Shown: piece by piece, positions 26,403 to 56,243 of the stretch
Layout: every line of letters begins with the position of its first letter
How positions within the stretch are numbered: the first letter of the stretch is position 1
Source: an uncultured Acidobacteriota bacterium
GTDB lineage: Bacteria; Acidobacteriota; UBA6911; RPQK01; JAPXNP01
DNA: 64,000 bases
Reading direction: 5' to 3'
Assembly: GCA_963777605.1 (NCBI GenBank)
Contig: CAVZRV010000008.1
Span: 449,761-513,760, forward strand
Made by a program: the position numbers and the translations under genes
Notes under the pieces: model-generated
Told to the model about the DNA's origin: nothing
Databases searched by the model: none
What the model saw: the letters and a program-made list of their open reading frames with translations, nothing else

Positions 26403-27980
26403 TTACTTGCTCAGCGTTTCGGTACTCGTCTGGGTACCGTCCTGCGTCACAACCGTCTGCTTCACCTTGACACTGTTGCTGCCGACGGAAAGAATCTGCA
26501 CCTTGACGAGAAGCTTCTCGCTCTGGAGCACCTTCGTTCCATCGATATCCGAGTTCACATGGAAGCTCGCGGTGATGATGTCACCGACCGCAGCATTCTT
26601 TGTGATGTCGAAGTATTCCGTCTGGCCGTTGGCGAGATTCATCGCCTTCGACAGCTTTCTGCCAGCAGCGTTGTCCACGTAGACATGGCCCACGTAGTAC
26701 CGCTTGGCGTACTGCGGGTGCGCCGGCGTGGTGAACGAAACACCCGCCGAACACGACTCACAGCCTGCTCCAACCTGGATAAGCGCCTTGGCCCACGCAG
26801 GGCACACGACCGTGTAGCTACCTGACAGCGTGACCCAGCTCGTCGCACAGGCCCCGCCCACAGTGTTCGTGTAGCAGTACTTGTCGATCAGCACGTCACC
26901 ATCGTTCATGTAGAACGTCTTGGACACGCTGGCGCCGGGGGCGGCACTGATGTAGCCGACCACCGCACCGGTGAACTTGTTGACAATGGCGTGCTTGATG
27001 GGCTTCGCGTTCTCGCGGTGCACCACACTCACCTTGACAGGGATGTTGGTCCCGTCACAGTCGGTAGTACACGTCGTCGCGAACGATACCTTGTGCGCAA
27101 AGAGCTGGAACGTGTTGTAGCCATAATCACGGTTGTAGTAAGTCGACCCGATCAGGCGCTGCCGACTGCTCGACGACGGGAAGGTGATGCGCGTCTTGAA
27201 GGACGATGGCGCATACACGTAGGCGTTTGCGCGTGCCTCACCCGTACCTGTTCGCTTGAACTTGAACGAGGTGTAGCCGAAGCCAGTCTTGCCCTTGTTG
27301 CCGGAAGTGCCGTTCACCGAAATGATCTGCAACCCACGATTGGTGATCGTGAGCGGCATACCCTTCGGTGCCCACAGGCCGTTGTGCTTGTTCGTGATCT
27401 TGACCTTGCCGGTCGCAACGCCACCAACCTCAACCGAGGGCAGGGTAACCGTGACCTTCAGGCCACCGTACCCACGCTTGGCGCGGTTGATGATGTTGTT
27501 GATGCCACTGACGTCGTACTTCGTGAGGTAGCCACGGTTGACCATGTCGTAGTAGTAGCTCCGGCCACCAGACGACAGCAGTCGCCAGATGGCAAAGCTC
27601 GTCCGGTAAGACGTCTTGTTACTGAAATCCTTGTTACGGAAATAGTCATTGGCGATGTACGTCGCCAAATCCTTGTAGTAGTTGGAAGCGGAACCGGGCA
27701 GGTTCGTGGCCACACCAACGATGTCGGTGTTAGCAACTCCCTTGTTCGGCTCACTACAGAAGCCCTTGAACTTGCCGGGAATGACCTTGAGGCCGACGTG
27801 ACCGCCGACACTCCGACCCTTACCAGCAGGGAACGACTTGCCGTAGCTGTTTACGGCGCTCACGTACGTAGCTGCCTCTGCGGGCGCAGCCGTAGCAACG
27901 GCAGCACCCGTCAGCATGATCAGCGGGATAGGAGCGCCCAGAAGACGCCTGACGGCACTACTGCGAGGCGATGCACTCAT
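26403..27980 (-). CDS. Secreted thioester-domain (TED/TQXA)-like adhesin candidate
   Basis: Signal peptide (RR...APAEA), GFCSEP, TSFAIW, RQRLI motifs, Cys-paired beta-rich C-terminus; GC-richer codons than neighbours. Confidence 0.6.
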   Translation of the reverse strand: MSASPRSSAVRRLLGAPIPLIMLTGAAVATAAPAEAATYVSAVNSYGKSFPAGKGRSVGGHVGLKVIPGKFKGFCSEPNKGVANTDIVGVATNLPGSASNYYKDLATYIANDYFRNKDFSNKTSYRTSFAIWRLLSSGGRSYYYDMVNRGYLTKYDVSGINNIINRAKRGYGGLKVTVTLPSVEVGGVATGKVKITNKHNGLWAPKGMPLTITNRGLQIISVNGTSGNKGKTGFGYTSFKFKRTGTGEARANAYVYAPSSFKTRITFPSSSSRQRLIGSTYYNRDYGYNTFQLFAHKVSFATTCTTDCDGTNIPVKVSVVHRENAKPIKHAIVNKFTGAVVGYISAAPGASVSKTFYMNDGDVLIDKYCYTNTVGGACATSWVTLSGSYTVVCPAWAKALIQVGAGCESCSAGVSFTTPAHPQYAKRYYVGHVYVDNAAGRKLSKAMNLANGQTEYFDITKNAAVGDIITASFHVNSDIDGTKVLQSEKLLVKVQILSVGSNSVKVKQTVVTQDGTQTSTETLSK

Positions 27981-28091
27981 GCCGGTTCCTTTCTGCAGGG
28001 AAACGTATGTATTCGAGATGTTAAGTCGAATCGACCCACCTCGAATCGATACGTCTTTTGGTGGCCCCCTAGGGGGACCTTGGACTGCATA

Positions 28092-28120
28092 ATTATAGTA
28101 GTATAACTATATTTTGTCAA
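28092..28120 (-). promoter_or_regulatory. Consensus sigma70 promoter of the adhesin gene
   Basis: TTGACA-17-TATAAT on minus strand. Confidence 0.8.
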
Positions 28121-28133
28121 TTTTTTGTATCTA

Positions 28134-28162
28134 TAGACATTTCGTTCTTTATATTATATAAT
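28134..28162 (+). promoter_or_regulatory. sigma70 promoter of ORF 28200
   Basis: TAGACA-17-TATAAT. Confidence 0.7.
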
Positions 28163-28199
28163 TTCTACATTCGAGCACCTAAGCCATAAGGAGGCACCA

Positions 28200-28571
28200 A
28201 TGCTCGACGATATCAGAAAAGCTTGGCTCTACCGCCACATGAATCCGATGGATGCCGATGTGCTTGGCGCACGCGCTGAGGAACGTGCCATGGCCGTTCA
28301 AGCTGCGACCGATCGCATGCACCACGGTGTTGGGCGACTGCACGCCAGTGGGCCGATGAATAACTCACTCGAGGCCCGTCGGAGCGCCGTCATGCGGGCA
28401 ATGGCCATCGAAGAGGCTCACGTCCAGGATCTCACCGAACTTTACCAAGCAGTGGCACACTACCGTGGCTGCAACAGCGAAGAGTGTGAGCGCATTCAGT
28501 CCGGCTGGGCATACAAGCTACTCAGTGCACTGGGTTTGGCGTCAAGGCCAGCATTCAAAGAGCACATCTGA
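28200..28571 (+). CDS. Hypothetical protein (cassette class)
   Basis: TAAGGAGG SD, own promoter, bulged hairpin plus T run at ~28581-28614. Confidence 0.75.
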   Translation: MLDDIRKAWLYRHMNPMDADVLGARAEERAMAVQAATDRMHHGVGRLHASGPMNNSLEARRSAVMRAMAIEEAHVQDLTELYQAVAHYRGCNSEECERIQSGWAYKLLSALGLASRPAFKEHI

Positions 28572-28656
28572 CATCACCGCACCGGCTTACGCATCACGCG
28601 ATAGGCCGGTTTTTCTTGCGTATCCATAGGCTGGGGTGTTACAACTAATAGGAACT

Positions 28657-28917
28657 ATGACTACATCTTATGAAACCCCCTCACATCGCTTTACGCTCGA
28701 ACAAATGCGCCTACACCAACCACCAAAACCCGATTCAACACCCATAACGCACGAAGGCCCAAGCCTTGATGAAGTGCATGCTGAGCTCGCCGGCCTGTCG
28801 CCTGAAGCGCTACAGGCGTTAGCACTCGAAGAACAGCTCACCCGACACAGGTTGAGTGTCGAAACGCGCACCTCGCTGACACGCAGCGCCGCACTGGCCG
28901 AGTTATTAGGGTTATAG
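28657..28917 (+). CDS. Hypothetical protein
   Basis: ORF with ATG 28657 between a terminator and the next promoter. Confidence 0.55.
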   Translation: MTTSYETPSHRFTLEQMRLHQPPKPDSTPITHEGPSLDEVHAELAGLSPEALQALALEEQLTRHRLSVETRTSLTRSAALAELLGL

Positions 28918-28983
28918 ATTGCCAAAATAGCAGTTCGATGGTATGATACATCGCATTACTTACAAAAGCGAGATGAGAAACTG

Positions 28984-29688
28984 ATGCCTTCAACTTTTGA
29001 CTACCCACCAGGCGATGGTGACGACGAACAACCAAATATGGATGCGTTTGAACAAGAATTCAACGACATCACGGGTGAACTGAACGAAATAGGCAGGATA
29101 CCCGACCTAATGAGCGATGTTGCAGGATTTCGCGAAGCGATTATTGACCTGATGGACGCAAAAATGAAGGTGGCCGACCCGAGGGGCAATTTTGACCGCG
29201 GCATTGTTGAAACCAAACGGCAGCTTTACGACGCCGCAGCGGATTTGTTCAGAGCAATTATCGAAGACACGCCGTCGGTTGAAGAACTGAAGCCAACACT
29301 CACTCGGCTACTAAATGATGAATTCGACACGTGGGTGGAGGCGCTTGGCGAACTTTCTGAAGGCCGGTTCGATCATACCAAGTATGACGATGAGGGCGAC
29401 TCAGCCGAAGCGGTAGAGGGCGAAATTGAAGAACACATCGTTGAAGACGATAACCGCGACGCACTCGCAAAGTGTGTTGCCAACCACTACCATGGCATCG
29501 TTGACGACATGCTAGAAGATTTCGAAGAATTTTACCCCGAAGAAGGTGAGTTGCAGCGCTCGTACCGCGATTATACAAAAGAAGAAATCATCAGTGGTGC
29601 AACGGTATTACTCGGCAAGGCGGCATTTCAAGCCGTAACGATTGCGGCTGGGATATTGATTGCCGAGCGATTTAAGCGTAACCGGTAA
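28984..29688 (+). CDS. Acidic hypothetical protein with C-terminal hydrophobic segment
   Basis: 234 aa, D/E-rich, ends AVTIAAGILIAERFKRNR. Confidence 0.7.
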   Translation: MPSTFDYPPGDGDDEQPNMDAFEQEFNDITGELNEIGRIPDLMSDVAGFREAIIDLMDAKMKVADPRGNFDRGIVETKRQLYDAAADLFRAIIEDTPSVEELKPTLTRLLNDEFDTWVEALGELSEGRFDHTKYDDEGDSAEAVEGEIEEHIVEDDNRDALAKCVANHYHGIVDDMLEDFEEFYPEEGELQRSYRDYTKEEIISGATVLLGKAAFQAVTIAAGILIAERFKRNR

Positions 29689-29723
29689 TTGTATTTTATA
29701 AGTTTTTGTGATATAATATATTT

Positions 29724-30341
29724 ATGGAATATGCGCATCGACCGAAAGATGCTACCGAGCAACTTCGGCAACACCCGAACGAACCGGTAATTGAATACTT
29801 CGTAAGTAACGAAGGCTCTACTTATGAACGCACATTTAATACTGCAGATGCGGATACCCTCGGAGGAAGCTCTGAGTATATTGTCGGACACGATGCAGTG
29901 ATTCAACATGTCGAATCACTACTTGAGAAATACGAGGCCTCAACACCGAATGAGCGTAATCTTGGATGTCTTATTGACGCCGTCACAATTATACAGGAGC
30001 TTCCATCGCTCTTCGGCAATAAACTACCAGATGCCTTACACGAAGAAATTTTTCAACAAGCCGTGGCGCGACTCGACCGCCGTGAAGACCGAATATACGA
30101 TGAACCAGAGGACATGGCGGCAGATGCGGCACTTGTGATTCACTTGTCACAGATCCCTGAGGTGTACGAACGGTTACGCGCAATCGTGCAGGAACACCTT
30201 AAAGAACATAGGGCCTTTAGGCAACACCTAGAAGACCCACTCTTGCGTGCATTCGCGTCAGCCTTCAGTGAAATGCACCTAGATTATAACAGCCTTGATT
30301 TGAGTGATGCTGACGGACTCCACGCGCTCTTATCGCAATAA
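29724..30341 (+). CDS. Hypothetical protein
   Basis: 205 aa ORF; TATAAT 6 nt before ATG. Confidence 0.7.
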   Translation: MEYAHRPKDATEQLRQHPNEPVIEYFVSNEGSTYERTFNTADADTLGGSSEYIVGHDAVIQHVESLLEKYEASTPNERNLGCLIDAVTIIQELPSLFGNKLPDALHEEIFQQAVARLDRREDRIYDEPEDMAADAALVIHLSQIPEVYERLRAIVQEHLKEHRAFRQHLEDPLLRAFASAFSEMHLDYNSLDLSDADGLHALLSQ

Positions 30342-30344
30342 CCC

Positions 30345-30373
30345 TTGCAAAATTGCTCTGCTTACGCTATAAT
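30345..30373 (+). promoter_or_regulatory. rplK promoter
   Basis: TTGCAA-17-TATAAT. Confidence 0.7.
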
Positions 30374-30440
30374 ACAACGAAGTTACGCACTGCAAATGCT
30401 TCACATTAACTGCAGTAATCTAAAAAGGATTTAATTTATT

Positions 30441-30866
30441 ATGGCAAAGAAAGTTATTGGTAACCTAAAACTTCGTATTCCTGCCGGCCGCGCAACTGCT
30501 GGGCCGCCAGTTGGTAGCACACTTGGGCAGTGGGGCCTTAATATGATGGACTTCATTAACCCGTTCAACGACGCCACTAAAGGCGACATGGGTAAAGACG
30601 TTATCGTTCACATTAAGGTATATGAAGACCGCACGTTCGACTGGAAAAGCCTGGGCCAGCCTGCTGACGACATGATTCGTGCCGCTGCTGGTATCCAAAA
30701 GGGTTCCGGTAAGCCACACTCTGAAAAAGTAGGTAAAATTACCCGCGCACAGCTTGAAGAAATTGCAAACGCTAAGATGGATCAGCTAAACGCGAACGAT
30801 CTCGACGGCGCCTGCAAGGTGATTGCCGGTACAGCACGCAGTATGGGTGTTGAAGTCGAAAACTAA
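30441..30866 (+). CDS. rplK: 50S ribosomal protein L11 (Saccharibacteria-type), monocistronic
   Basis: KLRIPAGRATAGPPVGSTLGQWGLNMMDF, GTARSMGV; terminator AATAGGCACTC..GGGTGCCTATT at ~30884-30912. Confidence 0.98.
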   Translation: MAKKVIGNLKLRIPAGRATAGPPVGSTLGQWGLNMMDFINPFNDATKGDMGKDVIVHIKVYEDRTFDWKSLGQPADDMIRAAAGIQKGSGKPHSEKVGKITRAQLEEIANAKMDQLNANDLDGACKVIAGTARSMGVEVEN

Positions 30867-31023
30867 GCAGTATTACACCATAAAATAGGCACTCGCATGG
30901 GTGCCTATTTTTAATATCCTCGATACAAATAGTCGTGCAACAGGTTGGAATATTGGAGATATTATGATATAATAACATAATTACGCAATCCTGCGTACGA
31001 ACCTACCTAAGGAGGAGCGGGCG

Positions 31024-31848
31024 ATGACCTCGACCGAACTCAACCAAGACGACTTCTACACCGCGTTCCGGAGGTGGAACGCCAAGACAAGCACGCCAAT
31101 TTTGGCAGGGAACATGGCCTACGTACTGTGGCGGATTGTCGAGCGCCTGCGCTCGGCACGGCTCGGTACTGACGTTGACTACCTGCCGGGCACGCGACCG
31201 CTCACGAGGCGCCGTCGAGCCCAGAACGCACTCGGCGTTGGACTGTTCAGTGTTAGTGCCGCCATGGATACAAGCGAGCTGTACTACAGGGCAACGCGCC
31301 CCGGCGACACGTACGGCCCGGCGAACAGCCAGGACAGAGAGCTCATCGGCTTGATTGCTACGGCCGCCACTGGCATCGCCCTCGCAATGCGTGAGCTGCG
31401 AACCGGCAAGGCATTCATCCGCGGCTATCCACTGTCGAAGGATGGCCGAGCCGACAGCGCCATCACGATTGCCAAGCTGAGCGCTGTGGCTCTCATGGCT
31501 GCACACGAACTGTACCGCCGCCGTGAGCAGTGGCTGCCGCAGCTGCAGGATCACCTGTACACCGCCAAGGTGCTCGCACCTGTGGTGTGGAGTCAGTTGA
31601 AGGCGAAGGTGACTCGGCGCGAGCCCGAGGAGTTGAGCATGTCCGAGGAAGACCTCGATCGACTGCTCACCACCATGGCCGGGATCGAGGGAAGTCTCAT
31701 CGACACCGACCCGGACAACCCGGACTCGTGGCCGGAGGAGCTTGACTTCGAGCGGCTCGTGCTTCTTGCGGGCTTGACACCCGAAGAGGTGGCCGTGCTT
31801 GAAGGCCGAGACTTCGTGCCCGACCAAGGCTCACCCGAGCGCTCCTAA
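31024..31848 (+). CDS. Hypothetical protein (cassette class, GC-rich)
   Basis: TTGGAA-17-TATAAT (30945-30973), TAAGGAGGAG SD, bulged hairpin 31861-31892 plus T run. Confidence 0.75.
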   Translation: MTSTELNQDDFYTAFRRWNAKTSTPILAGNMAYVLWRIVERLRSARLGTDVDYLPGTRPLTRRRRAQNALGVGLFSVSAAMDTSELYYRATRPGDTYGPANSQDRELIGLIATAATGIALAMRELRTGKAFIRGYPLSKDGRADSAITIAKLSAVALMAAHELYRRREQWLPQLQDHLYTAKVLAPVVWSQLKAKVTRREPEELSMSEEDLDRLLTTMAGIEGSLIDTDPDNPDSWPEELDFERLVLLAGLTPEEVAVLEGRDFVPDQGSPERS

Positions 31849-31951
31849 CCCCTCCTTTACCCCCCACCACCCGTTAGCACGGGGGATGGGGGATTTTTTA
31901 TTAACCGCCTATGGTTTGGGGCAACCACCCCCAGTGGTAGACTGATGGTAT

Positions 31952-32839
31952 ATGGGAGTTGTTGTCTCACCCGAACGAATCGCGCGCGGATACCTACCAA
32001 GCGCCGAAGCCCACCAAGAAGCAGGGCGGTTTTTGCTGCAGCGTCTTGGCCAGACAGCCCACGAAATGCCATCGCTACTGGGGGCAATGGTGTATGGCTC
32101 GGTAACCTTCAAACCGACGCGTCGCAGTGATTTGGACGTATTAACGGTCTTTTCAAACCACGTTGGGGCAGATGAGCTTCACATGGCGGCGGGCGTATAC
32201 GCCGAAACTGCTGAAACGTTTAATGTCCCCCCAGAACCAAATACCATAATCGTTACTCCACATATGAAGCCCCATGACCATATGCTCGATAGTATGTTCG
32301 GCGAACATTTGCGATTCACCCAAACCACCCGCCCCGAATGGGCGCTTGGTACACCGGTCGACCACCTACCGTTCCGTGAACTTGATCAACAAGAAGCATT
32401 TGACGTATCGCGCAACTATTCAGCGTACAAAGAACGTTTATTTCTAAAAGCAATCAGTGAAAAGCGGGGCATACTTGATGTTTCGATATTGCAGCGGGCG
32501 TTTGAAACACCGAGTTCAATGGCGCGAAAAGCAATTGGTGCGATTGACTTTGCCACGCTAGACGACCCGGCACAATTGGGCCGCGAACGATTGGCAGTAA
32601 GGGCCGAGGAGCTATTACACCAAATCGGCAGCGACGAACATGGGGTGTGGGCTCACCGCAGGCTAAAGATGTTAGATAGCGAATACACCGATTTACTTGA
32701 AGGTGTGATTGAGGGTGATATTTACCTCGAAGAATACACCTCGTGGCTAAACCGCTATAACGGCGAAGCACTTCATAAAGCCCGCGAGCTTGCCACGACG
32801 TGGAAGACGATTATTAGTGAATACCAGCACCATTTCTAA
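31952..32839 (+). CDS. Pol-beta superfamily nucleotidyltransferase with helical C-terminal domain
   Basis: VYGSV...RRSDLDVL motif. Confidence 0.7.
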   Translation: MGVVVSPERIARGYLPSAEAHQEAGRFLLQRLGQTAHEMPSLLGAMVYGSVTFKPTRRSDLDVLTVFSNHVGADELHMAAGVYAETAETFNVPPEPNTIIVTPHMKPHDHMLDSMFGEHLRFTQTTRPEWALGTPVDHLPFRELDQQEAFDVSRNYSAYKERLFLKAISEKRGILDVSILQRAFETPSSMARKAIGAIDFATLDDPAQLGRERLAVRAEELLHQIGSDEHGVWAHRRLKMLDSEYTDLLEGVIEGDIYLEEYTSWLNRYNGEALHKARELATTWKTIISEYQHHF

Positions 32840-32897
32840 AATTTATATAAATATTGTATAATAGTCGTGTCACGCTCTACCCGATTGAGGAGGCGAC

Positions 32898-33326
32898 ATG
32901 TCGGACAATACCAAATGCATTACGCCGATTATGCACAGGAAGCTCGAAGCAAGCCGCGTGCGTGTGCAATCGTCGCGACGACGTGTCAGCACGGCATACA
33001 TGAGCGCTCACATGACCCTGCAGCCAATCCTTCGTGAAATGGCGGGGTTGCTCGAAAAGATGAGCGGTGTACTGACGAAGTACCTTGACGCGGAGGTAAA
33101 CGAGATTTCGAGGAGTGATGTATTCTCGCACACCAGCAGCATCGTCAATACCGCCTTGGCACTCGCCGAGTACTTGGCGGCAACAGGTGATGTTCTTGCC
33201 GGCGAGCCTGAAACGGCTGAAGCACAGAAACGGCTGGAAGCCTGCAAGCGCGAAATCGCGTCCGCGCGCGCCGAGATGAGACAGCACGAGCAGCTACTGG
33301 AAGCGGCATTGCAGTCAGCAAAGTAA
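32898..33326 (+). CDS. Hypothetical helical/coiled-coil protein (cassette class)
   Basis: GAGGAGG SD, TATAAT at 32857, bulged hairpin 33335-33366 plus T run. Confidence 0.7.
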   Translation: MSDNTKCITPIMHRKLEASRVRVQSSRRRVSTAYMSAHMTLQPILREMAGLLEKMSGVLTKYLDAEVNEISRSDVFSHTSSIVNTALALAEYLAATGDVLAGEPETAEAQKRLEACKREIASARAEMRQHEQLLEAALQSAK

Positions 33327-33401
33327 TCTGCACACCCGGTAGCCCCATACATGGGCAACTACCGGGATTTTTTTATGCAAACAACGTATAATAGCCCCTA
33401 T

Positions 33402-34289
33402 ATGCGTGATACCCCGCCAAAACAGAAGTCATTTTTACGGCGTCACTGGATTGTACTGGCGATTATTCCGCTCGCATATTTAAGTGCACTTGGTAGTATT
33501 AGCTACGCCGATTACACCCAGCGCAACCAAGAATCCGCGCGCATTGAGCAATCAATCAAAGAAACAAAAACAATCTACAAAAAGCTTGCCGATATCAAGC
33601 AAGCAAAAATAGAGGCTGCAAAAAAAGCCGAGGCTGAAGCAAAGGCAAAAGCAGCTGCCGAAGCAAAAGCTAAAGCCAAAGCAGCGGCAGCGGCGGCTAC
33701 TGCTGCCAACCAATCCACTGCCAATTGTGGCGTCAGCGACCCGGCATCAATTACTGTGGTTATTAATAAAAAACATTGTTTTAGCCCGCTTTCATGGACG
33801 CCTAGTGACCTAACGAGCGTTGATGGCTACGCTGTGCGCAGTAGTGCGGCGACTAACTTACGCGCCATGATGACAGCGGCCAGTAAAGCTGGTGTTCCGT
33901 TCGGGCTGACCAGTACCTACCGTTCCTACCAAAATCAAGTCACTACCTACAACTACTGGGTTGCCACGAATGGCAGCTACGCAGCCGCCGATACCGTCAG
34001 CGCGCGCCCTGGCTTTAGCGAACATCAAACCGGCCTTGCCGCCGATTTAGACGCAGGTTCATGTGCGCTCAGCTGCTTTGGTGGTACTGCGCAGTACACC
34101 TGGTTAAAGAAGAACGCCGCCAACTATGGCTATATCGAGCGTTACCCCGCAGGCCTCACTGGAATTACAGGCTATAGCCCCGAACCATGGCATTGGCGCT
34201 ACGTAGGCGTGAGCGTTGCAAAAGATATGAAAACCAAAGGCATCGAAACACTCGAAAGCTACTTTGGTGTGAGCGGCGGCGGCTACTAA
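33402..34289 (+). CDS. Membrane-anchored M15B (VanY-like) peptidoglycan carboxypeptidase on an Ala/Lys stalk
   Basis: STYRSYQNQ, SARPGFSEHQTGLAAD, EPWHWRYVG; N-terminal TM. Confidence 0.9.
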   Translation: MRDTPPKQKSFLRRHWIVLAIIPLAYLSALGSISYADYTQRNQESARIEQSIKETKTIYKKLADIKQAKIEAAKKAEAEAKAKAAAEAKAKAKAAAAAATAANQSTANCGVSDPASITVVINKKHCFSPLSWTPSDLTSVDGYAVRSSAATNLRAMMTAASKAGVPFGLTSTYRSYQNQVTTYNYWVATNGSYAAADTVSARPGFSEHQTGLAADLDAGSCALSCFGGTAQYTWLKKNAANYGYIERYPAGLTGITGYSPEPWHWRYVGVSVAKDMKTKGIETLESYFGVSGGGY

Positions 34290-34358
34290 GCCGCTCATGC
34301 TTGGGTTTTACCCTTATAGCGCGCATAATAATCACCAAAGAAGAGGATAAGGAGTGAT

Positions 34359-35258
34359 ATGTCGCGTTCAAGTGAAACATTAAAATCATACCCTAAAAGC
34401 ATGGCTGGCGAGCGCGTTGGCTGGTATAGCGTGAGTCCGATCAGTGAAACCGGTATGCGCGAAGTGGCGGTCGCGACCGCAACTGTGGGTGAAGACGGCG
34501 CCCGTGCGATTCGCGAATTAGGTGACGATGGTGGTCAGCTCTATGGAAGTAGCTTGTCGCAAGGCTTCGAATCAGTGGCGAGCCTACGAACCTTCATACG
34601 CCCCGATATGCCACATGATGTACGCAGGCCTGAATTCAACTACCGGCGTGAAGGTGGCCCCACCATCAACCCTAACTTTCCACTCGAAGGATATAACCTC
34701 TTACTAGGCGGCAACAGTTTATTTAATATGCCAGACGCAGATACGTGGGTCGATTCAATGGATGATATGCGAGCAGGGCTATACGAAGCCATGGCCCGCA
34801 CCGACCTTGCTTACGATTGGTGGTTACCGTTTTACTATGAATTTAATATTAACGTTGCTCAAAAACCGCCCACCGGTATTGCCCCCGAAGGGCTAGCCGA
34901 CACACTTCTTGTCGACCCAGAAAACACCGCTGAAACCGAACGTCAAATCCATGTGCTTTCTAATCTTGTGCGCGCCCTGCAAAAACGCATTGAGCAATAT
35001 CACACCGTCAATGGGGAATTTGACCGGGGATTGCTCGACAAGAATAACCAGTGGTCGTACCGCCATGCGTTTGCCCGTGACGCGACGAACACACTCTTTA
35101 CCACATTGCGTTCAGATACGCACGCCCCCTACAGCTTGGTGTACGGCCCGTTTGATGGTGATAGGGATATGGGCACACAGTTTTCAACACGCATTACCCA
35201 CCTGCAAGAAGCGGTGCAAGCCCTGCATGTACTCGACATCGCCGAACGTAATGCCTAG
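34359..35258 (+). CDS. Hypothetical protein
   Basis: 299 aa ORF with TAAGGAG SD. Confidence 0.7.
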   Translation: MSRSSETLKSYPKSMAGERVGWYSVSPISETGMREVAVATATVGEDGARAIRELGDDGGQLYGSSLSQGFESVASLRTFIRPDMPHDVRRPEFNYRREGGPTINPNFPLEGYNLLLGGNSLFNMPDADTWVDSMDDMRAGLYEAMARTDLAYDWWLPFYYEFNINVAQKPPTGIAPEGLADTLLVDPENTAETERQIHVLSNLVRALQKRIEQYHTVNGEFDRGLLDKNNQWSYRHAFARDATNTLFTTLRSDTHAPYSLVYGPFDGDRDMGTQFSTRITHLQEAVQALHVLDIAERNA

Positions 35259-35267
35259 TAAGCCGCA

Positions 35268-35714
35268 CTACGCGTCATCTTCTAAATAAATCAGCTGCAT
35301 CGGTTGGAGGCCATCCCTGTCGTGCTTTTTCGGTGAGCGGCAGGTGAGTATCTGCGCACGTGCACCAAGCCCGCGTGGTACATTAATGCGTAGTTTTCCA
35401 GGGCATCCTGCCACCAGTTCTTCATGCTCTTCAACCAACTGTGCCTGATGGCTATCAAGATGCTCAATCTGATCACCGTACCGCTGCATCACTTCAGTCT
35501 GACGCCTTCGCACGTAATCGGCTACTTCCTCCTCGGTATCAGCAGGGTACTGACCGTATTGATAGGCAAGGTATTGTGGCATATCTGGATCCATCGCCGC
35601 ATACTCAAGCTGTTTGGTACGTGCTGCAATTTGCTCTGATTCAGCCTGCATCATCCTGAGAATAGGGCAGTCGAGGCAACGCTGTGGCGTTTCAACTTGC
35701 TCGTGTAACTTCAT
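35268..35714 (-). CDS. Hypothetical protein with CxxC and further Cys
   Basis: TATAAT 6 nt before ATG 35714; RCLDCP, GCPG, TCRS. Confidence 0.65.
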   Translation of the reverse strand: MKLHEQVETPQRCLDCPILRMMQAESEQIAARTKQLEYAAMDPDMPQYLAYQYGQYPADTEEEVADYVRRRQTEVMQRYGDQIEHLDSHQAQLVEEHEELVAGCPGKLRINVPRGLGARAQILTCRSPKKHDRDGLQPMQLIYLEDDA

Positions 35715-35817
35715 ATACCCATTATACGCCCAGTTTTCACGGTTACTATTTTTCACAACGTACCAGGCGAATTACTAGTCTTGACGGCCATTAGCTGGCT
35801 GGGGTTACAATAGATAC

Positions 35818-35980
35818 AGCTTATGATTGTACTCGGCTGGCAACAGCAGTTTCCACGGTCAAAGCAATGCACATTCTGGCTCGCTTCGCGTTATAGCAAG
35901 TGAACCTTCAAGAACTCGCGACTTCAGGCAGATGGATCGGTTAGCAAGTGGTATACCGTAGCCAGCCTCGTCGTTCATAC
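35818..35980 (+). ncRNA. Candidate 6S-like structured RNA
   Basis: TACAAT at 35806; long irregular hairpin: TATGA..GGCTGGC/GCCAGCC..TCATA closing stem, central bubble, TCGCG/CGCGA apical stem. Confidence 0.45.
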
Positions 35981-36023
35981 TCCACCACTTATACGAAAAA
36001 CATTCATCATAGGAGAGTATGCT

Positions 36024-36263
36024 ATGGCAAATACAATCAACAGTCCTGTTCAAATTACTGCACTCGGGTTTGGTCGCCACATGGAGCCAATCCCACAGCG
36101 AATGGAATGGAAGGGCACCACGTATCACTTTGTTGATCGCGGTATCCGCGCTACCATTCGGCGGGGTGAGCACATTTGGAGCACCGTCACGGTAAGTGAT
36201 GGTACACGCAACTTCTGCCTACGGGCAGAGGGTAGCGCATGGACGCTTCTGAGCGTCTGCTAG
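36024..36263 (+). CDS. Small beta-rich hypothetical protein
   Basis: AGGAGAG SD; PQRMEWKGTTY; hairpin plus T run at ~36290-36321. Confidence 0.7.
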   Translation: MANTINSPVQITALGFGRHMEPIPQRMEWKGTTYHFVDRGIRATIRRGEHIWSTVTVSDGTRNFCLRAEGSAWTLLSVC

Positions 36264-36388
36264 AACCTTTTAGCAATACAGGACGAAATGGCCCCCGCTG
36301 TTACCAAAGCGAGGGTTTTTTCGTTTATTGACCTTTTGGTAGTTTTATGGTTAAGTAAATACGGTGATTTTCCCCGACAACCAAGGAG

Positions 36389-37060
36389 ATGATCGATGTG
36401 TTCGTTCAAAACTTTTCAGCACTCGTAGGGTCGCACAAATGCTTCGTTACGCACCGCATCACAGAAGATGAGCTGACGACCCTGAAGCGGCTACGCGAAC
36501 GCTACACGAATTCGGCTATCCGTATTGGCTACAACGTGCTCGCAGGCATTGTGTCCATGGTAACGATCTGGCTACTCGCAGACGTAATCAACCTAAAGCG
36601 GCCCGTGCTCACTGGGTTCCTGCTTGGTGCACTCACTGCCGCGGTTCTTAGTATCCAGCCGCTGCTCACGCGGCGTAAGTTCCGGCGCTTTGTCCGTCAG
36701 CTCGTTTCGAGCGGCGCACTGCTGCCATACAGCTACGAGCTCGAACAGCGCACCGAAGCGCTGGAACGGACGCGTCCAGAAAGTGCGAGCGGCTTCGCGA
36801 TTACTGAATTGCTCCGCCGCATCCAGCCAGCTGAATCCGAAGCGGTCACGACCTTCTTCGAAAACGAGCGACTCCCTAAGGTCTACAGGCTCATCAAGGA
36901 TAACTCATATGGCTACACAGCGATGAGCGATGAAGTGAGCCACGAGCTGAAAGAGCATCTCGCGCAGCTAACTCGTCCCGTATGGGAATCACTACTACGG
37001 GTTCTCAACGCACTCAGGGCAGAAAACGACGCGCGCGCCAAGGCTGCCATGGAATCATAA
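36389..37060 (+). CDS. 2-TM hypothetical membrane protein (cassette class)
   Basis: TTGACC promoter at 36328, AAGGAG upstream, long bulged hairpin 37070-37109 plus T run. Confidence 0.7.
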   Translation: MIDVFVQNFSALVGSHKCFVTHRITEDELTTLKRLRERYTNSAIRIGYNVLAGIVSMVTIWLLADVINLKRPVLTGFLLGALTAAVLSIQPLLTRRKFRRFVRQLVSSGALLPYSYELEQRTEALERTRPESASGFAITELLRRIQPAESEAVTTFFENERLPKVYRLIKDNSYGYTAMSDEVSHELKEHLAQLTRPVWESLLRVLNALRAENDARAKAAMES

Positions 37061-37151
37061 CTCACCACCACCCGTCATATTTGCGAACATCTTCGTGAAG
37101 TTGGCGGGTATTTTTATTGTACGATGCAACCCGCACGGCTATAATCCGTAT

Positions 37152-44650: not shown

Positions 44651-44710
44651 CATTTCACTAAGCTTACGCGTCAATAAGACGTAACGATATAGAATCAAAG
44701 GAGATTAACT

Positions 44711-45162: not shown

Positions 45163-45191
45163 TTGACTATTTATGCTGATTATGCTATAAT
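45163..45191 (+). promoter_or_regulatory. sigma70 promoter of ORF 45228
   Basis: TTGACT-17-TATAAT with extended -10 TG. Confidence 0.8.
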
Positions 45192-45227
45192 GATAATGAT
45201 AAGCCATCCATCTACGAAGGGAACCAC

Positions 45228-45902
45228 ATGGCTCGTACCTTTGCCATCGACTACTACGAGTTCGACGACGACACTTGGAGCGACAGCGTCCAGGGCGTTC
45301 AGGTCAAGGCGCGCAGCGCCTCCGACCTGGCCCTCATCGCGAGCGCCACGCCGCCCGTCGTCCACATGCCCAAGTGGGAGCTCTACCGCGAGCGCCAGCC
45401 CATGACGCGTGCCCGGCGTAACCGCCAGTACACGCGCATGGACCGTTGGCACAAGCGCGAGCACGCCGCCGCCATGGCCGCCCAGAAGGCGCGCCGTGAC
45501 GACGAGGCCACTTGGGGTGTCGAGAGCGACCCCTACGCCCACTTGCACGACGCGGAGTGGGACCACTGCGACGAGCTGGACTGCTGGAGCCCCTGCGGCT
45601 GCTACGGACCGTGCTTCCACGAAGAGGCTGGCACCGTGCACCCCACGGAGCAGCAGCGCGAGCTGTTCGCAGCCGTCGCACCCATCACCGCTCTGCCGGT
45701 GCAGATCCTGCCGACGAAGCGCAGCGAGAAGTCGACGCTGATGAAGCGTCCGTCGCCCTCGCCGGTTCGCCGCAAGAGCGCACCGCAGCCGCAGTTGCCG
45801 CCGCACCTGCGCGTCCCCGAGAACGAGGAGCGCTGGCGCGACGGGCACCGTGGTGGTCGCGGCACCAAGGGTCGTCACCGCATGGTGCGGCTCGTCAGCT
45901 AG
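45228..45902 (+). CDS. Very GC-rich hypothetical protein with Cys cluster and basic C-terminus ending RLVS
   Basis: GAAGGGAACCAC-ATG RBS, strong G/C third-position bias, CDELDCWSPCGCYGPC. Confidence 0.75.
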   Translation: MARTFAIDYYEFDDDTWSDSVQGVQVKARSASDLALIASATPPVVHMPKWELYRERQPMTRARRNRQYTRMDRWHKREHAAAMAAQKARRDDEATWGVESDPYAHLHDAEWDHCDELDCWSPCGCYGPCFHEEAGTVHPTEQQRELFAAVAPITALPVQILPTKRSEKSTLMKRPSPSPVRRKSAPQPQLPPHLRVPENEERWRDGHRGGRGTKGRHRMVRLVS

Positions 45903-45914
45903 CGCTGGCATCCT

Positions 45915-45970
45915 GAGGCCTGGTACCCTCGATGAACCCCTAGTGGGAACATCGGGGGTCACCAGGCCTC
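45915..45970 (+). other. Conserved C-bulged hairpin, copy 1
   Basis: GAGGCCTGGT-ACCCTCGATG...CATCGGGGGT-C-ACCAGGCCTC; homologous to 46871-46927. Confidence 0.75.
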
Positions 45971-45984
45971 TTCGCATAGAAAAA

Positions 45985-46029
45985 ACCCGCAGTGGCGGTA
46001 GTCGATTCTACGACTACCGCTCTGCGGGT
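45985..46029 (-). terminator. Long bulged terminator of ORF 46046-46558
   Basis: ACCCGCAG..GCGGTAGTCG-loop-CGACTACCGC.CTGCGGGT with A run on + strand. Confidence 0.7.
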
Positions 46030-46045
46030 GTTGCGCTTTAGCGCA

Positions 46046-46558
46046 CTATGAAGGTGGCGTGAGCGGTTCGAACTGTAGCTCACCGCCTACACGACGATAG
46101 CGACCATAGATCCTGCCTGGCTGGCCAACGATCTGACGCCTGAACGCCCGCGTGACATCAAACGCGACCCACTCTCCCTCAAGCTCCAGCTTAGCTGTTC
46201 GCGGGAACATCGCGTCATCTGCACCAATCATGTTAGCGTATTCAGCGGCAGTGGTTTGTAGCCGTGGGACGCCGTGCCGCACAGGGAAGTAGTACCCCGT
46301 GATATCAAACCACCCCAGTTTCCATAGCTCCTCCTGGCGGTGTTCACGCCACAAGCACAACAGCAGCACTGCAACGAGACCGAGAATACCAGCCGACAGA
46401 ATGACACCAGGCACCAACGCGCGGCGTGATGCAAAAATCATCACAACACCGATCACCGTGATTGCGCCTGCGGCGAGACCCAGAATTGTTCCAAGATCTT
46501 CCAGGCGCTTATAATGGCGCACAAGGCCAGGATCCTCATATACTTCCGTAGACCGCAT
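46046..46558 (-). CDS. 2-TM hypothetical membrane protein (cassette class)
   Basis: AAAGGAGGAG SD before ATG 46558; TTGCTA-17-TAAAAT promoter. Confidence 0.75.
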   Translation of the reverse strand: MRSTEVYEDPGLVRHYKRLEDLGTILGLAAGAITVIGVVMIFASRRALVPGVILSAGILGLVAVLLLCLWREHRQEELWKLGWFDITGYYFPVRHGVPRLQTTAAEYANMIGADDAMFPRTAKLELEGEWVAFDVTRAFRRQIVGQPGRIYGRYRRVGGELQFEPLTPPS

Positions 46559-46638
46559 GGCTCCTCCTTTTAGTAGGGTCGTGGGCACAGAATAGGCATA
46601 TTTTATACTTTTTTTCATATTTTAGCAAGGTATAGTTA

Positions 46639-48861: not shown

Positions 48862-48961
48862 CCTATAGCACTAATACGAATACACATCCCTGAGTGGTTT
48901 GTGTATTTTTATTTTTATAGTATAATATATACGACATATCCCCGCACACGGAGGTGGAGTA

Positions 48962-49132
48962 ATGGTCTTCATACTTCCAGCAATCATGATCGTGCTCGGA
49001 CTCGCATTCCTTGGCCTCGGGCAGCGCAGCCAGACAGGCAAAAACCAGCGAGCGTGGAGCGCACTGGGGACATCATGCGTAATCCTTGCGTTTATCGCAC
49101 TCATCGCTGGGGCCATCATGTCATCGTGGTAA
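48962..49132 (+). CDS. 56-aa two-TM small membrane protein (below ORF-track cutoff; cassette class)
   Basis: GGAGGTGGAG SD; MVFILPAIMIVLGLAFLGLG...CVILAFIALIAGAIMSSW; TATAAT at 48921; hairpin ACCAGGTAG..CTACCTGGT plus T run. Confidence 0.75.
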   Translation: MVFILPAIMIVLGLAFLGLGQRSQTGKNQRAWSALGTSCVILAFIALIAGAIMSSW

Positions 49133-49286
49133 CTCAACCACACCACCAGGTAGCTTGCAGGCTTTGCTTAGCGAATACTACCTGGTTTTTTATTGTCAAT
49201 TTTACGGCCCCCAGCATGAGCGTATTGCGCTATACTAGCTACAAACGAACGGGTGGAGTTTAGAAGAGTAGGGGAATAATCAATCA

Positions 49287-54206: not shown

Positions 54207-54497
54207 ATGGCTCTTAATCAAATGAAGATGCTAAATGACCTGCGTAAAGCACAAAAAGACCTTGCCCGCGAAATTGTTGAAGTTGAAGCTGGTGATGGTG
54301 CTGTGGTGGTGCAGGTAACTGGTGAGTTGAAAGTTAAAAGTATTAAAATCGACCCTGCGAGCGTTGACACTGACGACATCGAAGAGCTCGAACACTGGCT
54401 CGAAATTGCGATTCGTGATGGTATGGCCAAAGCCCAAGAAATTGCTGCCGAAAAGATGAAGCCCCTGATGGGTGGTCTTGGCAACCTTGGCATGTAA
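54207..54497 (+). CDS. YbaB/EbfC family nucleoid-associated protein
   Basis: EAGDGAVVVQVTG, IKIDP, DIEELE; precedes recR. Confidence 0.9.
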   Translation: MALNQMKMLNDLRKAQKDLAREIVEVEAGDGAVVVQVTGELKVKSIKIDPASVDTDDIEELEHWLEIAIRDGMAKAQEIAAEKMKPLMGGLGNLGM

Positions 54498-54523
54498 CGA
54501 AATAGGAAGATTACGTAACCTCT

Positions 54524-55138
54524 ATGTCACAGCTGCTCCCGAAAGCACTGGTTTCATTAATTGATGAATTAGGCCGCTTACCCGGTGTTGGTGTGCGTAC
54601 CGCCGAACGGTATGCCTACTTTTTGCTGCGTAGCAACGAACGCACTGCGCAATCACTTGCATCGTCGATTACCTCACTACACGAAAAGGTAAAAGTATGC
54701 CCAACCACATTTGCGCTGATTGACGCTGACCTTGACGTTTCACCGCTCTATACTGGCAGCGACCGCGACAAGACAACCATCGCTGTTGTTGAAGAGCCGC
54801 TCGACATTGTGGCACTAGAACGAACCGACCAATACAAAGGCACCTACCATGTGCTTGGCGGCGCGATATCACCAATCGACGGCATTGGCCCCGAACAGCT
54901 ACATATTCCAGAACTACTGGAACGTATTGCTCGCGATAAGGTCACTGAAGTAATTATCGCCACTAATGCGAGTGTGGAAGGTGAGTCAACTGCACTGTTT
55001 ATCCAGCGTCAAATCACCCAGGCAAAGCTGGATGTTAAAGTATCGCGCCTCGCACGCGGAATTCCCGCTGGCATCGATTTGGAATATGCCGATCAAATCA
55101 CGCTCGCTCACGCGCTGGAAGGCCGTCGCATATTATGA
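54524..55138 (+). CDS. recR: Recombination mediator RecR
   Basis: LPGVGVRTAER, VVEEPLD, YHVLGGAISPIDGIGP, VEGESTA, LEYAD. Confidence 0.96.
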   Translation: MSQLLPKALVSLIDELGRLPGVGVRTAERYAYFLLRSNERTAQSLASSITSLHEKVKVCPTTFALIDADLDVSPLYTGSDRDKTTIAVVEEPLDIVALERTDQYKGTYHVLGGAISPIDGIGPEQLHIPELLERIARDKVTEVIIATNASVEGESTALFIQRQITQAKLDVKVSRLARGIPAGIDLEYADQITLAHALEGRRIL

Positions 55139-55722
55139 ACCTCGAGTCCACTACACGCCTTCAAGAAGATATCAATAAACTCACTGGTTTGAAGCGAAAT
55201 CACTTTTTACCAGGCACCGAGCAAAAGGAAGATGATGCATCACATAGCTACAGCGTGGCGATGATTGCATGGAAGCTCCATAACGAACTCGCGCCACAGC
55301 TCAAGCTGGAAATTATCATGCAGTATGCTATGATTCACGACTTTGTGGAAATACACGCGGGGGATGTGAACACATTTGCACCCCAAGAAGCAAAGCTCCA
55401 AAAAGTCATTAACGAGCGCGCCGCACTTGAACAGTTAGCCGCAGAATATGCCCAGTGGCCGCAATTTGTCGATACATTAAGGCGCTATGAAGCAAAAGAA
55501 GACGAAGAGTCACGGTTCGTGTGGAGCTGCGATAAAATCCAGGCGTTACTACAAGGGCAGCTGGATGAGTGGCGCTGCTACTACGAATTTCCGATTTCGG
55601 ATGAAACCTTCGCAGCGAAATTAAAAGAGTTTCAACCAGATATTCACCCTGCTTTAGCAGAATTTTTTGCAACACTAACTGAAGGCTGTATTGATTCGTA
55701 TCATAATCCCCGTATAGATTAG
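55135..55722 (+). CDS. HD-domain hydrolase (5'-deoxynucleotidase-like)
   Basis: EDDASHSY, IHDFVEIHAGD, ESRFVWSCDK. Confidence 0.85.
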   Translation: MNLESTTRLQEDINKLTGLKRNHFLPGTEQKEDDASHSYSVAMIAWKLHNELAPQLKLEIIMQYAMIHDFVEIHAGDVNTFAPQEAKLQKVINERAALEQLAAEYAQWPQFVDTLRRYEAKEDEESRFVWSCDKIQALLQGQLDEWRCYYEFPISDETFAAKLKEFQPDIHPALAEFFATLTEGCIDSYHNPRID

Positions 55723-55818
55723 GGGGTAGTAGGTACATCGCACCCACAACATTCGATTTATTCGAATACTCTGGGTGCGAGCAGGAGTGATGAGTCCATA
55801 CTCGCTGGTGGCACATCG

Positions 55819-56103
55819 TCAGCTTGCGCGGACGATTACCAACCGATTGGGCTTGTGAAGGCGGTCTTGCACGTTCTCGTGCGCGTACTGCACGACCCAC
55901 GTACGGTCCTTGCCGAACGCTGTGCCGGGAAGGCCACAGTCTGTGGCATTCGCCTCGACGATGGCCGCGAAGAACGCATCGTGCTTGGTGGGATCGCGGG
56001 GAAGATCCTCGATGGCGATCTGGTAGTACGCCCACCAGATGACCGACGGACGCTCATCCCCGAGCACCGGGTGCTCATCCCACATGTACCGTTCGATTCT
56101 CAT
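55819..56103 (-). CDS. GC-rich hypothetical protein (cassette class)
   Basis: AGGAG SD, TTGCAA-17-TATAAT (56155-56183), long hairpin 55738-55780. Confidence 0.7.
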   Translation of the reverse strand: MRIERYMWDEHPVLGDERPSVIWWAYYQIAIEDLPRDPTKHDAFFAAIVEANATDCGLPGTAFGKDRTWVVQYAHENVQDRLHKPNRLVIVRAS

Positions 56104-56243
56104 GACGCATCACTCCTGCGTGTCTAGACGGAACTTGCTTCTGTCTCTTTAATCATTATATCATATTTATTCGATAATTGCAATACGCACCGCTTACGGT
56201 TAAGACAGAGGCCAAAAGCAGCAGATATGCTATACTATCACTA

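Follow-up and report, generated by a model that had tools for sequence, protein, structure and literature searches.

What kind of genes are the 12 GC-rich open reading frames (ORFs) that lie among mostly leaderless neighbours in the 64,000-nt stretch of DNA analysed here (hereafter the window), which was deposited as part of an uncultured Acidobacteriota genome? A first-pass annotation had described them as self-contained, monocistronic and orphan-like expression cassettes led by Shine-Dalgarno (SD) sites, and had suggested that they are either tuned to the translation system of a high-GC host, possibly as transferred mRNAs, or were acquired in series from actinobacteria or their phages. All 12 ORFs, numbered C1 to C12 in window order, were found where that annotation had placed them; the starts of C7, C9 and C10 (39907, 46558 and 46715) are internal starts of longer ORFs, each preceded by an SD. 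They belong to a 43-kb Saccharimonadales fragment and, on balance, we think they are probably accessory genes that form a class of their own by atypical composition and autonomous expression, and that come from a Saccharibacteria-specific, fast-evolving pool exchanged by recombination.

The GC content at third codon positions (GC3) of the 12 cassettes ranges from 0.57 to 0.89 (median 0.66), whereas the 39 remaining genes on the Saccharibacteria side span 0.44 to 0.60 (median 0.51; Mann-Whitney p=4e-7). All but one of the 12 (0.62-0.89) lie above every other gene of the fragment, as the reported richness in G/C-ending codons would have it, and the exception is C9, which at 0.57 falls in the native range. 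GC3 exceeds GC1 and GC1 exceeds GC2 in the cassettes, as coding sequence should show, and their overall GC is heterogeneous (0.55-0.69). Promoters, which are known here from consensus matches alone, were accepted with at least 9 of 12 matches. Such a site stands 35-111 nt upstream of 11 of the 12 cassettes, with all 12 positions matched in C1 and C10. No promoter of its own was found for C5, which sits 125 nt 3' of a conserved 79-aa ORF, and C10 is a truncated copy, so the description as self-contained units holds with these two reservations. When the genes were split objectively at a GC3 of at least 0.62 (11 genes versus 41 others), a leadered promoter was present in 10/11 versus 7/41 (Fisher p=1e-5). 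An SD-like site precedes all 12 ORFs; it is strong in C1, C2, C3, C4, C7, C9 and C11 and weaker in C5, C6, C8 and C12, and the median SD duplex energy is -7.8 kcal/mol in the cassettes versus -2.5 kcal/mol in the other genes (p=6e-5). The near-consensus promoter and SD-bearing leader of the first-pass description are thus confirmed.

A 3' hairpin follows every cassette (z-scores -1.2 to -7.0), with a T run in 10 of the 12, C8 and C12 being without one. The hairpins have a GC stem and T run in common, whereas their sequence is shared by C8 and C10 alone, and the native rplL and nusG terminators are of the same style. These hairpins are ordinary intrinsic terminators rather than the special shared structure that had been suspected. 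Two of them overlap the longest-ORF starts of the downstream genes, VanY and the gene at 37095, whose likely starts (33402 and 37152) are leaderless in type. In agreement with the first-pass annotation, no integrase or transposase domain was found with Pfam, and no shared flanking or attC-like repeats were found around the cassettes. Pfam likewise showed no phage domain, PHROGs gave nothing convincing for the cassettes (none at E<0.01), and with NCBIfam, PHROGs and PADLOC none of the cassettes or low-GC orphans could be credibly placed in a family, defence families included; Pfam rows up to E=1 were noise. All-versus-all BLASTP of the cassettes showed no paralogy apart from C8 and C10, no cassette matched elsewhere in the assembly, and only for C8, in locus L087 of a relative, was conservation of promoter and leader sequence seen at another locus.

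The compositional shift is broad. Every 2-fold codon family of the cassettes is moved towards G/C endings (AAG 0.89 versus 0.42 in native genes, CAG 0.87 versus 0.46, TTC 0.80 versus 0.34), ATC is raised (0.75 versus 0.32), and TTA (0 versus 0.15) and ATA are avoided. Relative synonymous codon usage correlates with that of conserved native genes at r=0.49 for the cassettes and r=0.89 for the low-GC orphans of the same slots. In the ribosomal-protein genes, C-ending 2-fold codons go up, 4-fold GC3 goes down and the G-endings of Lys, Glu and Gln do not go up. The cassette pattern is unlike this bias and is therefore compositional, and translational selection or tRNA adaptation was rejected as the cause of the high GC3. 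The choices within Gly (GGC/GGT), Arg (CGC/CGT) and Ser (AGC) are native-like and unlike those of the co-assembled Acidobacteriota part.

As a correction to the first-pass annotation, only ~20.7-64 kb of the window is of Saccharibacteria, and its native genes are those of a fragment. The window is the terminal 64 kb of its contig (contig C8, not to be confused with unit C8) in assembly G000 (6.73 Mb, 53 contigs, 58.8% GC; reported as 96.7% complete and 5.7% contaminated). Its first ~20.4 kb belong to the Acidobacteriota genome proper, with tRNAs, tuf and nusG-rplK-rplA-rplJ-rplL, the rplL end being at 20360. NusG of this part is 82-93% identical to Acidobacteriota metagenome-assembled genomes among the 26 best of the 80 loci kept; the lower of these loci go down to 61%, a few of them under other labels. 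From ~20.7 kb to the contig end the GC content is ~0.50, versus 0.59 before, and this part holds a second nusG, rplK, rplA, rplJ and rplL together with thyA, tmk, dnaX, dnaB, recR, ybaB and cysS. These second copies are 24-52% identical to their counterparts elsewhere in the assembly (25-52% for nusG, rplK, rplA, rplJ and rplL), and their NusG is 84-93% identical to 80 loci, nearly all labelled Saccharibacteria or Saccharimonadales. The Acidobacteriota rpoB expected 3' of rplL was found cut at the start of contig C50. In the public sequencing run X1, short contigs at a depth of ~3-4 lie over 20.7-34 kb, that is, on the Saccharibacteria side only and covering it in part (28675-29341, for example, is uncovered); cover is essentially nil at 14.0-15.3 and 18.7-20.6 kb, and no contig spans the junction. 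Given the second ribosomal-gene copies, the GC drop, the cut rpoB and the X1 cover, the contig is therefore a chimeric join of an Acidobacteriota chromosome segment and a 43-kb Saccharimonadales fragment. K-mers shared with other contig ends did not locate the exact junction, and no other region of such composition and gene content was found in the assembly. As a practical point, an Acidobacteriota assembly is shown to hold a chimeric contig. A further contig, C29, opens with ~15 kb at 42% GC (C29:1-15000) before continuing at 59%, and this may be a second foreign or chimeric end.

The contrast in initiation mode is set by the native genes of the fragment. In ~17 of the 41 other genes versus none of the 11 GC3-rich ones (p=0.0098), a -10 hexamer matching the consensus at 5 or more of its 6 positions stands 6-12 nt ahead of the start codon, and these ~17 genes look leaderless by this sequence criterion, as had been reported. 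SD sites also occur in native genes, namely thyA, cysS, ybaB, rplL and dnaB as well as operon-internal genes, and those of thyA (-9.7 kcal/mol), cysS (-9.3) and ybaB (-9.3) are equal in strength to those of the cassettes. Across 78 Saccharibacteria loci, the distance from the -10 element to the start peaks sharply at 6-8 nt (99 of 608 ORFs, versus ~5-7 per other position); leaderless-type starts are therefore general in Saccharibacteria. The 1466 ORFs of these loci include 42 whose GC3 is at least 0.15 above the locus median; thyA, thyX, genes for secreted proteins and a mobile element are among these outliers, which account for 7-8% of the rare ORFs versus 0.4-2.5% of the conserved ones. Among ORFs first in their unit, they are less often leaderless in type than typical genes (2/37 versus 210/785, Fisher p=0.0018) and more often SD-led (12/37 versus 96/785, Fisher p=0.0015). 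In the portion of the literature that our search returned, neither widespread leaderless genes in Saccharibacteria nor a GC-rich, SD-led class was found described.

Comparison with relatives showed where the units sit. The nusG-rplK gap is 14-4552 bp in relatives and at most 200 bp in 37 of 73, versus 4094 bp in the window; the rplK-rplA gap is 53-7372 bp in 42 relatives and ~7.4 kb in the window. With the closest relative found, locus L087 (ribosomal protein L1 85% identical), only rplK, VanY, the 79-aa ORF, rplA, the DUF7347 gene, thyA, tmk and rplJL align, and every interval between these anchors holds unrelated genes in the two genomes. That the anchors alone align points to a region built as a string of conserved anchors and hypervariable slots, the latter holding mostly leaderless orphans of native composition together with the GC-rich leadered units. 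Between the window and a related strain in X1, native pieces show 4 differences in 2319 nt, and those with C1, C3 or C4 show 66 in 2745 nt. Among the differences listed, the ratio of synonymous to non-synonymous is 9:4 in C4 and 5:7 in C3.

Three relatives of C1 were found among 5.8 billion proteins, the family is present in 6 of 401 sampled Saccharimonadia genomes, and a pattern scan of 185,579 species genomes returned five loci, all labelled Saccharibacteria or Patescibacteria. In three of these five the homolog adjoins nusG on the opposite strand, and in two rplK follows on the far side, as in the window. The homologs in all five have a GC of 0.60-0.62 and a GC3 of 0.69-0.78 next to neighbours at a GC3 of 0.27-0.68; across six genomes the family stays at a GC of 0.58-0.62. 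The SD context GCAGAAAGGAA is common to the homologs and the window. The protein has a Sec-type N-terminal signal peptide, and its AlphaFold2 model (mean predicted local distance difference test score, pLDDT, 82.9) shows an alpha/beta head with a conserved Cys followed by tandem immunoglobulin (Ig)-like domains. The top Foldseek match is the TIE surface protein PDB 6fwv (E 9e-8, TM-score 0.28), to which C1 aligns with Z 9.4 over 366 residues (root-mean-square deviation 30.9), and its Ig-like domains (residues 168-501) reach Z 11.6 to Ig domains of the invasin, intimin and S-layer type. C1 is thus modelled as a secreted multi-Ig protein resembling a TIE adhesin. Like the TIE (thioester-isopeptide-ester) adhesins of Gram-positive bacteria, it is predicted to combine a signal peptide, a Cys-bearing head and tandem Ig-like domains. 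The TIE thioester domain carries a Cys-Gln thioester pair. In the C1 family Cys75 is invariant, but where the thioester Gln would be expected, just before a conserved A-[IV]-W, all 9 sequences have S, L, A or G instead, and unlike the TIE adhesins C1 has no LPXTG anchor and no Pfam TED match.

Divergence at a slot was also seen in the C1 family. Loci L170 and L172 encode NusG proteins with 98% identity, but their C1 homologs share only 56%. At the DNA level, the flanks are identical at 0.77-0.89 of positions and the 5' end of the homolog at 0.95; identity drops to 0.47-0.52 in its middle and is 0.80-0.93 at its 3' end. In the same pair, a 5' leader of ~210 nt (L170:3540-3790, L172:1170-1380) is ~95% identical and more conserved than the flanking nusG and rplK DNA, a conservation that suggests a regulatory leader.

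Three more units have rare relatives, so that "orphan-like" does not apply to C1, C3, C7 and C8. C3 was apparently unique in a word-indexed search, but a full HMMER search gave 16 distant relatives, the best at 42% identity. The C3 family occurs in 4 of 401 Saccharimonadia genomes; in one of them, G367, the homolog lies between rplK and VanY, the same slot as in the window, with a GC3 of 0.72 versus 0.53-0.56 around it, and in three of the four genomes the family has an extended -10 element, a 40-55 nt leader and an SD. C7 has one homolog in 391 Saccharimonadia genomes (G304, 37% identity), which stands beside thyA as in the window and has a GC3 of 0.73 versus 0.48-0.58, a leader of ~85 nt and the SD GAGGAGG. 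A macro-domain-like fold is weakly suggested for C7 by a low-confidence model (pLDDT 63.5) whose top Foldseek rows are macrodomains (E 1.8e-3 to 2e-2, TM-score ~0.4) and by an Atlas feature score of 0.91 to a cluster with Macro in 64% of its members; C7 has no PF01661 match, nor any in Pfam at E<=1. C8 has two weak protein relatives (P0007 and P0008) and a positional ortholog after rplL in L087 with a GC3 of 0.96. Promoter, leader and first codons are conserved between the two (91% over 35 nt), and the body is unalignable save for a PCGCxGxC motif; both keep a GC3 of ~0.9 while rplK and rplA DNA is 76-78% identical. A pattern scan for the C8 family in the 185,579 species genomes found none. 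C10 has the same promoter as C8 and keeps the 3' ~250 nt and the hairpin, with ~540 nt of leader and 5' coding sequence gone, and is thus a deletion derivative of a C8 paralog that arose by local duplication. C9 gave only four marginal matches in 391 Saccharimonadia (E 2e-4 to 7e-4), which lie over its transmembrane (TM) hairpin and were rejected as homologs. From their sequences, C5, C9 and C11 look like membrane proteins. Scans of IMG/VR gave no confirmed relative of C1 or C8, a single 29-residue match to C5 that was taken as spurious, and one tblastn match to C7 without a readable locus.

Units C1 to C12, the anchor genes around them and the chimeric-join zone (CDS, coding sequence; coordinates are those of the window)
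Feature	Positions	Strand	Description
C1 unit	26372..28120	-	promoter TTGACA-17-TATAAT 28120-28092; 111-nt leader; SD GAAAGGAA
C1 CDS	27980-26403	-	525 aa, secreted, TIE/adhesin-like; GC3 0.77; terminator 26391-26372
C2 unit	28134..28617	+	promoter 28134-28162 (11/12); SD TAAGGAGG; bulged hairpin and T run
C2 CDS	28200-28571	+	123 aa; GC3 0.63; no family match
C3 unit	30945..31900	+	extended -10 promoter 30945-30973; SD TAAGGAGGAG; long hairpin and T run
C3 CDS	31024-31848	+	274 aa; GC3 0.77
C4 unit	32834..33375	+	-10 TATAAT 35 nt upstream; SD GAGGAGG; terminator 33335-33374
C4 CDS	32898-33326	+	142 aa; GC3 0.66; terminator overlaps VanY longest-ORF start
C5	36389..37115	+	CDS 36389 (or GTG 36398 behind AAGGAG)-37060; 2 TM-like segments; bulged terminator; GC3 0.64
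C6 unit	37649..38190	+	promoter 37649-37677 (10/12); weak SD GAAGGG; terminator 38155-38182
C6 CDS	37730-38146	+	138 aa; GC3 0.66
C7 unit	39284..40007	-	promoter ~40007-39979; 71-nt leader; SD GAGAGGAG; bulged terminator
C7 CDS	39907-39374	-	177 aa, macro-domain-like (weak); GC3 0.62
C8 unit	45163..45975	+	promoter TTGACT-17-TATAAT with TG 45163-45191; SD GAAGGGAA; 56-nt hairpin without T run
C8 CDS	45228-45902	+	224 aa; GC 0.69, GC3 0.89
C9 unit	45988..46628	-	promoter-like site 46628-46600 (9/12); SD AAAGGAGGGG; long terminator
C9 CDS	46558-46046	-	170 aa; 2 TM-like segments; GC3 0.57
C10	46639..46940	+	promoter 46639-46667 (12/12); 49-aa ORF 46715-46865; hairpin and T run
C11 unit	48895..49195	+	-10 TATAAT 35 nt upstream; SD GGAGGTGGAG; bulged terminator
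C11 CDS	48962-49132	+	56 aa; 2 TM-like segments; GC3 0.65
C12 unit	55738..56183	-	promoter 56183-56155 (10/12, with TG); SD AGGAG; hairpin without T run
C12 CDS	56103-55819	-	94 aa; GC3 0.78
Anchor genes secE, nusG, rplK, VanY, 79-aa ORF, rplA	25380..45095	+	Pfam, tblastn to 166 loci, synteny with L087
Anchor genes DUF7347 gene, thyA, tmk, rplJ, rplL	25380..45095	+	Pfam, tblastn to 166 loci, synteny with L087
Chimeric-join zone, Acidobacteriota/Saccharimonadales	20361..20745	.	duplicated genes, GC drop, cut rpoB, X1 cover

Several features of the surrounding genes were observed in passing. The 79-aa ORF (36024-36263, + strand) lies in a stretch, 35732-36267, that is 68% identical in DNA to L087; it has no Pfam or PADLOC match, Rfam gave nothing in 35.5-36.5 kb, and an antisense ORF at 35859-36173 was dismissed as spurious. 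Ribosomal protein L1 (38210-39262) has an N-terminal extension of ~120-150 aa before its Pfam L1 domain (residues 153-341), which is common to the Saccharibacteria relatives, where tblastn matches span ~1000-1100 nt. Of the two low-GC slot genes at 28984-29688 and 31952-32839, one is very acidic (25% D+E) with a C-terminal TM anchor and the other, just before C4, has a minimal nucleotidyltransferase-like G-S...D-x-D pattern (Pfam Polbeta, E=0.14 only). An Rfam L10 leader (43938-44067; 52 bits, over the gathering score) precedes rplJ behind an 11/12 promoter at 43912-43940, a native example of a leadered, regulated unit. The rplL of the Saccharibacteria part (44711-45095) is split by a 1-nt insertion near 44868, which is probably an assembly or sequencing error, L087 having an intact 127-aa gene. 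The dnaB gene is in two parts, the N-terminal half being encoded by ORF 51328-51759 and the C-terminal half by ORF 51846-52679; the several stops that separate them could reflect a frameshift, an error or an insertion. In several relatives, a thyA or thyX beside rplA is a strong GC3 outlier (0.65-0.79 versus 0.39-0.55): after rplA in L021, L026, L049 and L063, as a second family in L056 and L080, and alone in L076. Thymidylate synthase may thus have been replaced horizontally more than once, although thyA of the window has an ordinary GC3. In L034 a GC-rich block (11326-19397), which holds a serine-recombinase-like gene directly after rplK, is probably an integrated mobile element.

How could such units have arisen and persisted? 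On the reading that we favour, all but one of them would each form a transcription unit of its own, in which a promoter of the sigma-70 type is followed by an SD-bearing leader of 35-111 nt, the ORF and an intrinsic terminator, and would occupy variable slots among conserved anchors that are mostly leaderless or operon-internal. They would be made and used by the Saccharibacterium itself, several as envelope or secreted proteins. The units would come from a small pool, so far located, among relatives whose genome could be assigned, in Saccharibacteria only, that may be kept in place, diversified and swapped between lineages via homologous recombination at the conserved flanks. For Saccharibacteria, PMC10633639 describes natural competence and homologous recombination that uses flanks of ~1 kb. 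Exchange of this kind is indicated by the same-slot relatives together with the mosaic identity and the strain hypervariability, and recombination turnover would account for all three. The excess of G/C-ending codons could stem from a GC-richer source, frequent replacement, GC-biased conversion or selection, and the leader and SD might travel with the units either because a GC-rich 5' end makes a poor leaderless template or because they reflect the design of the source. A stronger version, which is possible but which we hold only tentatively, would make the pool clade-wide, enriched in surface and envelope proteins and fixed in its slots; hyper-frequent, transformation-driven recombination between lineages would hold GC3 at a gene-specific set point of ~0.7-0.9 by GC-biased conversion or continual replacement and so force the switch from leaderless initiation, the default of the phylum, to SD-led initiation.

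A number of observations weigh against the exchange reading. Sorted GC3 values run without a gap, as a continuous right tail and not as two clean modes; in the test for bimodality that the first-pass annotation had proposed, here over the 43-kb fragment, a two-component mixture is only moderately favoured (Bayesian information criterion -95.9 versus -87.4). C2, C4, C5, C7 and C9 deviate only moderately in composition. The cassette set was originally picked partly by the same features, a circularity that the GC3 split lessens but does not remove, and the association was seen over the 43 kb of this organism that the window holds. In relatives, GC3 outliers are no more frequent among ORFs of the nusG-rplK and rplK-rplA gaps than elsewhere (7/167 versus 35/1266, p=0.32), and most rare ORFs in these gaps are not GC-rich; so high a density of cassettes is therefore particular to this lineage. 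Searches gave no convincing relative for C2, C4, C5, C6, C9, C11 and C12, some of which were searched in local loci and family libraries alone, and since a word-indexed search missed the relatives of C3, orphan status is weak for the other cassettes. Recombination is deduced from how identity varies along a single genome pair and from the short X1 contigs, and no donor or GC-rich source lineage was found.

Instead of being exchanged within the clade, the units could have been acquired recently and one after another from unsampled higher-GC donors, actinobacterial hosts or phages, each bringing its own SD and still unameliorated. The G/C shift across all codon families, an SD-led design typical of most bacteria, the patchiness of the families (C1 in 6/401, C3 in 4/401 and C7 in 1/391 genomes) and the heterogeneous cassette GC (0.55-0.69) would all fit. 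However, C1 relatives are located in Saccharibacteria or Patescibacteria alone, those of C3 and C7 are in Saccharimonadia, viral scans gave nothing usable and PHROGs nothing convincing; same-slot relatives with a conserved promoter or SD in distant Saccharibacteria are unexpected for independent imports, and Gly, Arg and Ser codon choices are native-like. We consider serial import unlikely, and the specific actinobacterial or phage origin proposed earlier was not supported. It is also rather improbable, in our judgement, that the units are native genes of long vertical descent in which a high GC3 is actively kept, either by selection, which might favour mRNA structure or act against RNase sites or AT-rich internal promoters, or by GC-biased conversion at hyper-recombining, diversifying loci. 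This would explain the near-constant GC of the C1 family (0.58-0.62) despite the range of its neighbours' GC3 (0.27-0.68), the GC3 of ~0.9 in both C8 and its L087 ortholog, and the hypervariability of the C1-family and C8 loci. It is countered by the rare and patchy, non-core distribution of the families, by neighbouring slot genes that are not GC-rich, and by the size of the GC3 excess (0.3-0.45), far above the effects reported for GC-biased conversion in bacteria.

That the genes are tuned to the SD-dependent translation of a high-GC host, acting there as mRNAs or effectors, has the codon and SD contrast itself in its favour, as well as the epibiotic life of cultured Saccharibacteria on Actinobacteria described in PMC10633639. 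Against it, native genes of the fragment carry equally strong SDs, the promoters and terminators are of resident type, the G/C shift is general, C1 has a Sec-type signal peptide and needs the Sec pathway of the cell itself, and C5, C9 and C11 have TM-like segments. We know of no mechanism for mRNA export. This reading is extremely improbable; of what had been proposed, a class set apart by its composition and by the way it is expressed is supported, the adhesin-like C1 and the membrane-like C5, C9 and C11 being plausibly host- or surface-related, while the tuning to foreign translation and the transferred mRNAs have no support. An artefact, by spurious ORFs in GC-rich spacers or mosaic misassembly, might be suspected in a contig that is chimeric at ~20.4-20.7 kb, has a 1-nt insertion in rplL and holds the C10 remnant. 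Independent X1 contigs, however, run from native genes into C1, C3 and C4 and so exclude a mosaic artefact, protein relatives exist for C1, C3, C7 and C8, most strain differences in C4 (9/13) leave the amino acid unchanged, the cassettes show the GC3 > GC1 > GC2 order, and nothing matches them elsewhere in the assembly. We regard an artefact as very unlikely.

Saccharibacteria are ultra-small bacteria that live as obligate epibionts, and little is known of the genes by which they attach to their hosts or of those that set host range. If the exchange reading is right, the signature of GC3 excess, own promoter, and leader and SD in a leaderless setting could be used in any Saccharibacteria genome to pick out the flexible genes, which evolve fast and are in part exposed at the surface. 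It is uncommon for a GC3 excess to persist in same-slot relatives, and this persistence could bear on the debate over bacterial GC-biased gene conversion. Were the tentative set-point version true, codon composition, translation mode and host-interaction function would be mechanistically linked.

Several known systems share part of this picture. Integron cassettes are likewise a variable pool of small, single genes of mostly unknown function, but they have an integrase, attC sites and promoterless arrays, whereas the units here are dispersed, have their own promoters and show none of those sites. Horizontally acquired atypical genes are similar in being patchily distributed and in deviating in codon usage. 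Most acquired genes and ORFans, however, are AT-richer than the genome, while these units are GC-richer, their composition is coupled to the 5' design and the GC3 excess persists in same-slot relatives; such genes also have a donor outside the recipient clade, and none was found for C1 or C8 among the 185,579 species genomes. Both initiation modes in one genome, as in this fragment, are reportedly recognised in the GeneMarkS-2 classes of genomes that mix leaderless and SD-led starts. In naturally competent bacteria, hypervariable surface-protein loci are replaced by homologous recombination at conserved flanks. The units resemble them in conserved flanks and gene ends, an unalignable middle and strain differences concentrated in the genes, and differ in adding a strong, persistent codon offset and a switch in initiation mode. 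Phage morons, said to have been described by Hendrix and co-workers around 2000, are single genes with their own promoter and factor-independent terminator and a deviant composition, inserted between adjacent genes. The units share the promoter, the terminator, the deviant base composition and the position between genes that are adjacent in relatives. Morons reside in phage, whereas this fragment has no phage genes by Pfam and PHROGs and IMG/VR gave no usable relative; unlike morons, several units occupy the same slot in distant relatives, and their families are located in Saccharibacteria only. By analogy, the units may work like morons in a cellular genome.

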